Below, in pieces: positions 16,956 through 17,167 of a stretch of DNA of 64,000 bases. Numbering within the stretch: the stretch's first letter is position 1; the number at the start of each line of letters is the position of its first letter. The stretch spans positions 178,064,001-178,128,000 of the forward strand of contig OZ024742.1 in NCBI GenBank assembly GCA_964016885.1, in the 5' to 3' direction. The position numbers and the translations under genes are program-made. Under the pieces are notes generated by a model. It was not told where the DNA came from. It saw nothing but the letters and a program-made list of their open reading frames with translations, and did no database searches. Source of the stretch: Eledone cirrhosa. Taxonomy: Eukaryota.

Positions 16956-17167
16956 TTTAATGTATATAAATCAATACAATATAATTACCTCATTACCAGA
17001 GGTTTCCCGAATGAGGCGAATACGAAAGAAACGTCTTCATTCGTTCGTCAGACGAGGCAATATTGCCTCGTCTGACGAACGAATGAAGACGTTTCTTTCG
17101 TATTCGCCTCATTCGGGAAACCTCTGGTAATGAGGTAATTATATTGTATTGATTTTTATACATTAAA
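16956..17167. repeat. Loop-less 212-bp palindrome carrying a hammerhead on each strand
   Basis: Axis at GGCAAT|ATTGCC (17061/17062). Arms essentially perfect. Confidence 0.95.
17062..17139 (+). ncRNA. Type I hammerhead ribozyme (mirror copy on minus strand, 16984-17061)
   Basis: ATTGCCTCGT-CTGACGA-aCGAATGA...TCATTCGg-GAAA-CC TCT GG-TA-ATGAGGTAAT. 10-bp stem I with G-U pairs. Confidence 0.88.

Follow-up and report, generated by a model that had tools for sequence, protein, structure and literature searches.

Near 17 kb in a 64-kb stretch of Eledone cirrhosa DNA, the whole of which is referred to here as the window, a palindrome without a spacer carries a hammerhead ribozyme motif on each strand, the two facing away from each other. 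What kind of element leaves such a structure behind, and would RNA made from it fold as a ribozyme? The reading we favor (probability roughly 0.86) is that the locus records a single insertion into (TA)n, by a Penelope-like element (PLE) from the Hydra clade or by a non-coding element derived from such a PLE, and that it consists of two heavily 5'-truncated 3' ends placed head to head. Such an origin, which an earlier sequence-only reading of this DNA had not recognised, would explain the geometry of the palindrome.

Self-comparison of the window gave arms of 107 bp each (16955-17168), with the axis between 17061 and 17062 and a spacer of 0. Complementarity between the arms is exact for 94 nt, up to a single mismatch at 16967/17156, beyond which pairing continues to 16955/17168. 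The palindrome had been called perfect: it is loop-less as claimed, but only near-perfect, with 1 mismatch in 107 bp. That description had also missed that 73 unpaired nt (17169-17241) extend the right side and that (TA)n stands on either side of the element. The features of the locus are the following:

16885-16956, no strand: (TA)n tract adjoining the left arm, on the left flank of the insertion target
16955-17061, minus strand: putative inverted copy of the 5'-truncated PLE 3' end, short and tail-less, ending 39 nt past the cleavage site
16984-17061, minus strand: type I hammerhead of the inverted copy, found by descriptor; predicted cleavage 3' of 16994 (mirror of 17129)
17056-17067, no strand: junction of the two copies, a self-complementary 12-mer read from the sequence and centred on the axis
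17062-17168, plus strand: putative direct copy of the 5'-truncated PLE 3' end, the portion mirrored by the left arm (self-comparison)
17062-17139, plus strand: type I hammerhead of the direct copy, found by descriptor; predicted cleavage 3' of 17129
17169-17241, plus strand: 3' extension on one side only, a putative PLE tail that reaches the following (TA)n after 73 nt; far boundary provisional
17173-17200, plus strand: bulged stem-loop plus flank common to Hydra-clade consensus ends, including a 15-nt exact run at 17186-17200
17242-17287, no strand: (TA)n tract read from the sequence, right side of the insertion target

Each strand holds a full hammerhead, at 17062-17139 on the plus strand and 17061-16984 on the minus strand, and to this extent the sequence-only reading was confirmed. 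On the plus strand, stem I pairs 17062-17071 with 17130-17139 (10 pairs, including 2 G-U), the core CTGACGA lies at 17072-17078 and GAAA at 17117-17120, and stem II pairs 17080-17086 with 17109-17115 (7 pairs) around a 22-nt insert. Helix III occupies 9 nt (17120-17128), with 3 pairs counting A15.1-U16.1 and a TCT loop. CUGANGA, GAAA and NUH follow in order, with three helices and stem I open, as in type I hammerheads; positions 10.1/11.1, however, form an A-G mismatch, followed by a C-G pair, in place of the G10.1-C11.1 pair of that type. The axis had been said to coincide exactly with the 5' edge of stem I, which is correct for the uninterrupted helix, but five extra pairs are possible across the axis (17057-17061 with 17143-17147, over a 3-nt bulge), so the native stem I helix may extend past it. 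The same 5-pair extension arose in 452 of 20000 shuffles.

A strict descriptor (stem I of at least 10 pairs, stem II of at least 7 pairs) matched twice in the window and never in 200 block-wise dinucleotide shuffles; once the limits were relaxed, 11 matches were obtained in the window, against a shuffle mean of 0.005. Rfam gave 0 matches at the gathering score over the whole window, including the window's other hammerhead motifs, and returned no hammerhead model at E≤10 on 17055-17245. In the whole window at E≤10, the 150 matches listed out of 338 were nearly all sub-gathering microRNA models; these listed matches fall on hairpins or microsatellites, and we rejected them as structure-only. Helix III is marginal, at +0.4 kcal/mol as a monomer hairpin, and is still the best among the 8 hammerhead loci compared in the window; at the other 7, helix III is palindromic or near-palindromic. 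A short helix III hampers monomeric hammerhead cleavage (PMC4209133). Because the two motifs lie on opposite strands, the locus would allow neither monomer release nor the same-RNA dimer that short-helix-III hammerheads use.

Several traits of the locus are those described for PLEs, which form 5'-truncated partial tandems, have a 5'-truncated copy standing next to them in inverted orientation and bear a tail on one side only (PMC8557442). Head-to-head repeats with junction palindromes have been reported in PLEs, with self-priming proposed (PMC3846280), as have dual hammerheads on opposite strands 100-700 bp apart (PMC4209133); in Penelope-13_HM the inverted copy carries a second hammerhead, which places one on both strands (PMC8557442). 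At 17 kb, an inverted 5'-truncated copy is adjacent to the direct one, head to head, and the one-sided 3' tail (17169-17241) is homologous to a published consensus end, but at 73 nt it is longer than the usual 30-40 nt (PMC8557442). Target-site duplication is unreadable within (TA)n. EN+ PLEs have an ORF for a telomerase-like RT plus a GIY-YIG endonuclease; Pfam, applied to 15 long frames and 213 short ones, found no PLE RT or GIY-YIG domain in the window. Membership therefore rests on non-coding features, as a fragment; the missing PLE ORF is expected because the copy is 5'-truncated. The window also holds no second copy of this family.

The tail was compared by eye with the 6 Hydra consensi printed in the supplement of PMC8557442. 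Three blocks of 6, 15 and 7 nt occur in the same order in 17173-17214 and in the Hydra-2_Ajap 3' end, starting 44 nt past the cleavage site here and 39 nt past it in Hydra-2_Ajap, and the homology reaches 17214. For the 15-mer match alone, the rough chance expectation is 3e-4. Within the 584,131 characters of that supplement, the 13-mer at 17186-17198 was found twice (line breaks might conceal further occurrences), both times in Hydra-clade consensi, at the Hydra-1_Ajap 5' start and the Hydra-2_Ajap 3' end. The shared segment folds as a stem-loop with a 2-nt bulge, the inner stem varying between families, and by analogy with PMC11167929 the bulged stem-loop at 17173-17200 is a candidate reverse-transcription start signal. 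A descriptor of this bulged hairpin found 3 sites in the window (17173, 27783 and, on the minus strand, 9048), each directly past a fold-back arm end, whereas shuffles gave a mean of 0.285 and 3 sites in 1 of 200; the descriptor was built from the first two sites, and the third alone is independent.

Further comparison with the supplement tables of PMC8557442, counted by eye, gives a match specific to the Hydra clade. The 9-nt helix III seen here occurs in 19 of 25 Hydra families and a 10.1/11.1 mismatch in 15 of 25. A (TA)n target is listed for 26 of 27, and (TA)n stands on both sides here; this target is not Hydra-specific, since Naiads have it too (PMC8557442). Hydra consensi end 30-48 nt past the cleavage site in 10 of 24 cases and 100-150 nt past it in 8 of 24 (Penelope-18_HMa, whose listed hammerhead is that of the 5' end, was excluded), and the two ends at 17 kb lie 39 and 112 nt past it. 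Neither A-G at 10.1/11.1 nor a 22-nt stem II insert appears in the 25 Hydra rows of the supplement, and stem I at 17 kb exceeds most of those rows in length. Hydra-1_Obim is listed there from Octopus. At the protein level the clade is marked by RWK, DKT and CxCX5C motifs, by having no CCHH and by RT phylogeny (PMC8557442), while the 17-kb locus has no coding sequence. The hammerhead stems differ in sequence from those of all 25 listed families, including Hydra-1_Obim, which argues for a separate family. The locus is therefore probably a truncated fragment of a new Hydra-clade family: the kind of structure is already known, and the family seems, from its sequence, to be unlisted among the 25 Hydra hammerheads compared. 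In Octopus vulgaris, 336 recent Penelope-like insertions have been reported in a paper whose main text does not mention ribozymes or palindromes (PMC13282606).

Other identities and possible parents were considered and set aside. A coding role of the arm was rejected: the only ATG-led frame read by eye in the right arm is 15 codons long, and Pfam matched none of the long frames that cross the palindrome. For a prokaryotic or phage origin, a 20-nt arm motif had no exact match in genome contigs, and blastn against phages returned none. The RT ORFs at 18793-24186 and their relatives belong to APE-RT-zf LINEs and were rejected as the PLE parent, as was 28433-28816, presumably an RTE-type fragment to judge by its motifs. 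The window as a whole is microsatellite-rich animal DNA. It contains a near-complete LINE (18558-24186, minus strand) whose APE, RT and zf-RVT domains are distributed over different frames, together with truncated relatives at 24546-25413 (minus strand) and 60616-62280 (plus strand) of 90% and 73% DNA identity; for the LINE at 18793-21417, the nearest named proteins come from Argonauta hians, at 62-65% identity, which would suit an octopod host. A decayed RT fragment at 27980-29050 (minus strand), which we take to be RTE-like from its motifs, is interrupted by a copy of the dispersed short repeat listed below. Degenerate tandem repeats with a period of roughly 180-190 bp lie at 25424-26232 and 56528-56920, and a SINE-like dispersed repeat of about 190 bp is present in at least 9 copies, 84-98% identical, as follows:

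3063, 3492, 13854, 28752, 37891, 45477, 45690, 46964, 50251: SINE-like repeat copies

The 17-kb palindrome has company in the window. Inverted self-matches gave 14 candidate local fold-backs in the 64 kb, with 0 to 26 arm mismatches. A relaxed hammerhead scan returned 13 rows, of which one (18797, minus strand) was dropped as a likely false match, having a 122-nt stem II insert and lying inside the LINE; the remaining 12 rows represent 8 loci. Six of the 14 fold-backs hold hammerheads (at 9.2, 14.6, 17.0, 27.4, 29.7 and 40.0 kb), all of them outward-facing, and three hold complete divergent pairs (the 17-kb locus, 27465-27735 and 29946-30203). A search for degenerate hammerheads in the 8 other fold-backs gave 1 weak candidate in 16 strand-regions, which was not counted. 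The divergent pair and the absence of a loop each recur in the window, and their combination is unique to the 17-kb locus. With 1 mismatch per 107 bp, the evidence supports a young structure, in agreement with the sequence-only reading, and youth accounts for the 99% arm identity. That the palindrome might be maintained, the other option named there, was not borne out: the 14 candidates, with 0 to 26 arm mismatches, form an age series of the kind that repeated insertion and decay would give, and a second, almost loop-less palindrome (48146-48328) has no hammerhead.

Among the hammerhead-bearing fold-backs, 9158-9758 has identical 156-bp arms and a U3-A8 core-variant hammerhead (9596-9683, plus strand) with a palindromic helix III; its inverted arm ends 2 nt into the hammerhead core. 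The element at 14611-15770 has the textbook PLE layout of inverted copy, direct copy, tail and partial tandem copy, with a short junction duplication and a 5' hairpin that is imperfect in the tandem copy and perfect and longer in the first copy. One hammerhead family is present in three copies about 82% identical (27422-27820, 29722-30434 and 39650-39830). Its 27-kb and 30-kb members are head-to-head pairs that fold at a hairpin situated 60-64 nt 5' of stem I, the member at 39650-39830 is a single copy with a short terminal hairpin, and a tail is found only in the 27-kb member. An exact coincidence of the native 39.7-kb hairpin with the 27/30-kb axis was rejected, the match being only rough, with the centre about 10 alignment columns off. 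The 30-kb arms extend about 180 nt past the shared end of the family, for which the PLE model needs read-through or later duplication. The fold-back at 39963-40497 has a hammerhead at 40296-40338 and, in its spacer, a 57-nt partial tandem of the 3' end plus tail.

Elsewhere in the window, 48146-48328 is a perfect palindrome with 91-bp arms and a 1-nt spacer, where no hammerhead and no flanking (TA)n were found. The fold-backs at 16530-16794 and 702-850 lack a hammerhead and have (TA)n at the left arm; the former is extended on one side by 37 nt, after which (TA)n follows, and both may represent the ends of a further PLE family. At 9010-9135 and 46660-46822 lie two hairpin elements that are related (81% identity) and oppositely oriented, and 9010-9135 has the same bulged tail hairpin as the 17-kb tail, with no hammerhead. 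A solitary hammerhead at 59745-59846 stands right after (TA)n, and the hairpin 5' of this ribozyme has 10 nt in common with the 17-kb tail. A 9-mer common to 9765, 17174 and 59753 was not used as evidence, the alignments being only 10-17 nt. By eye, the tailed or full-length copy is on the plus strand in 7 elements (9.2, 14.6, 16.5, 17.0, 27.4, 40.0 and 46.7 kb) and on the minus strand in 1 (9.07 kb), a possible strand bias.

How could a PLE insertion give a palindrome with no spacer? We propose that an RT/GIY-YIG protein encoded elsewhere in the genome would cut (TA)n, as the target preference of the clade suggests, and reverse-transcribe element RNA. Both copies span the cleavage site intact, which indicates that the template RNA was uncleaved. 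Copying would start at two sites flanking the conserved 3' stem-loop and so yield the short end (39 nt) and the tailed end (112 nt); the two different 3' ends are observed in the sequence, and the two starts are suggested by the Poseidon element of PMC11167929. In that work, a PLE protein in purified form, predicted to be a dimer, cleaved and extended the two strands of AT-rich DNA on an uncleaved RNA template, with copying begun at a pair of stem-loop sites that delimit the tail (PMC11167929). At 17 kb, both copies stop at the 5' edge of hammerhead stem I. Both cut strands would be primed, which would give just this head-to-head arrangement of a short and a tailed end, and the identical cDNA ends would anneal via the self-complementary sequence at the axis; identical ends can anneal only through self-complementary sequence, hence a palindrome without a spacer. 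The 12-mer at 17056-17067 is a candidate annealing or fold-back point. We favor two-strand priming over fold-back self-priming of one cDNA (PMC3846280) at about even odds; both routes yield the same product and are inseparable at the 17-kb locus.

The positions of the arm ends suggest a further part for the hammerhead. Relative to the start of stem I, the inner ends of the inverted arms lie at 0, +1, +7 and +8 nt in 4 of the 6 elements. In the remaining two, which belong to one family, they coincide with a hairpin, 60-64 nt upstream. None of the 6 has its inner end at the cleavage site. For the three spacer-bearing elements p is about 2e-5, a post hoc value from a small sample with windows set after seeing the data. 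We counted the arm ends near stem I (4 of 6) and the hairpin past the arm end (3 of 3 sites) as favoring a reading in which these fold-backs record how PLEs integrate: a PLE dimer primes both strands at sites set by the stem-loop and the hammerhead serves as a structural stop or joining signal, not as a cleaver, with cDNAs ending and annealing at its 5' edge. This proposal is tentative and, on balance, doubtful. In a literature search conducted largely at abstract level and covering few subscription journals, no paper was found on the stem I arm-end pattern or on the Hydra tail hairpin, and the arm-end pattern may be new.

The rival that fares best, though still unlikely, keeps the PLE and assigns the inversion to the host: a single PLE end would have been inserted first, and replication or repair would later have inverted it by fold-back at the inverted repeat on the axis. 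Nothing in such repair gives it a reason to respect element ends, yet the left arm ends 39 nt past the cleavage site, within the 30-48-nt Hydra cluster and 4 nt before the conserved hairpin. The arm also does not mirror the tail, and a one-sided hairpin tail likewise lies past the arm ends at 27783 and 9048. The self-complementary 12-nt core at the axis does suit a host fold-back, as do the 30-kb arms, which run into microsatellite-like DNA past the family's shared end, and the imperfect hairpin of the 15-kb tandem copy, which appears perfected in the neighbouring copy.

Loop-less near-perfect palindromes are also a known signature of chimeras, and the window is unusually palindrome-rich (14 candidates); a fold-back chimera from amplification, library preparation or assembly is nevertheless quite improbable here. 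Such structures are reported to trouble assemblies (PMC8557442). However, arm divergence varies over the 14 fold-backs (0 to 26 mismatches), 6 of the 8 hammerhead loci lie in fold-backs with 6 of 6 facing outward, and the 82%-identical relatives at 27 kb and 30 kb fold at the same place. The inversion at 17 kb stops at the element boundary and leaves unmirrored a tail with published homology. It is this respect for the boundary, the unmirrored tail, the uniform orientation and the varied arm divergence that make an artefact unlikely.

The sequence-only reading had instead raised a choice between two folds, in which RNA from the locus forms either dsRNA or the ribozyme, and this could be taken as an RNA switch under selection in the host. 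In its favor, the core is intact in both motifs, their monomeric helix III is the best of the 8 loci, and the arms are 99% identical, an identity that youth explains. The folding energies, which cover secondary structure only, without magnesium or tertiary contacts, point elsewhere. The computed fold of read-through RNA is a long dsRNA (-194.5 kcal/mol, z -31.6), as had been expected; the either/or choice was not supported. For RNA of the full palindrome, the model gave -182 kcal/mol against -70 kcal/mol with the hammerhead enforced; the hairpin is thus better by about 113 kcal/mol, a modelled gap that far exceeds the error from ignoring magnesium and tertiary contacts. With the hairpin so favored, read-through RNA would be dsRNA, with the ribozyme locked off. 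The hammerhead comes near only for RNAs that start no more than 4 nt from the axis: its deficit is 3.5-3.9 kcal/mol for starts 0-4 nt left of the axis, and it grows to 7.5 kcal/mol when the start is 6 nt to the left and to 31 kcal/mol when it is 22 nt. Even for a single arm, a decoy fold beats the hammerhead by 3.6-3.9 kcal/mol in the model, and in a read-through transcript the antisense arm would be made first. Pfam on the window's frames found no host gene nearby. A selected switch is accordingly very improbable; the locus today is most likely inert, and any read-through RNA is predicted to form a 105-bp hairpin, which, if transcribed, could be an ADAR or Dicer substrate. That the locus is a MITE or foldback DNA transposon carrying a hammerhead by chance is scarcely credible. 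It is indeed a short, non-coding, inverted-repeat element within TA dinucleotides, but it has a one-sided tail with PLE homology where symmetrical fixed ends would be expected, the variable arm lengths and the partial tandems at 15 kb and 40 kb fit retrotransposition, and the window holds no dispersed whole copies.

Read as a PLE insertion, the 17-kb locus carries little weight alone, as a young and probably inert scar with an architecture already described. The arm-end pattern reaches further, bearing on how PLEs form inverted ends and on what PLE hammerheads do. PLE fragments appear to be dense here, since hammerheads mark 8 loci in the 64 kb, alongside 14 candidate fold-backs, and they were missed by Rfam; hammerhead-bearing fragments of this kind could be mislabelled as MITEs or microRNA hairpins. 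If transcribed in the cephalopod, the fold-backs would readily supply A-to-I editing with long dsRNA.

Among known systems, the non-LTR retrozymes resemble the locus in being non-coding and PLE-related and in carrying a type I hammerhead, but they are head-to-tail tandem units with same-sense hammerheads (bioRxiv 10.64898/2026.07.22.740005). Membership in that group was rejected: there is one motif per strand here, on opposite strands, and at least two same-sense units are required. Poseidon PAc of Anolis (Frangieh et al. 2024, PMC11167929) shares a tail bounded by two ends near a stem-loop, an uncleaved RNA template and an AT-rich target, the 17-kb element being known from its sequence alone; it differs in belonging to another clade, with a hammerhead that overlaps the ORF start and a tail inside the ORF. 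Closer in layout is the Adineta vaga Penelope with inverted pLTRs (Arkhipova et al. 2013, PMC3846280), which likewise has head-to-head repeats, a junction palindrome and a one-sided tail, though its insertions, unlike the 17-kb locus, keep ORFs, readable target-site duplications and a 31-bp tail. The closest system is the Hydra clade of C-terminal EN+ PLEs (Craig et al. 2021, PMC8557442; Hydra-2_Ajap, Hydra-1_Obim and Penelope-13_HM). The 17-kb locus departs from these elements in having no ORF, copies cut to about 110-180 nt, zero spacer, an A-G in place of their U-U mismatch and a long stem II insert. It shares with them a type I hammerhead near the 3' end with a 9-nt helix III and a mismatch at the base of stem II, insertion into (TA)n, 3' ends lying some 40 nt or some 110 nt past the cleavage site and a tail hairpin with the 15-nt run, and, with Penelope-13_HM in particular, an inverted 5'-truncated copy that carries a second hammerhead.
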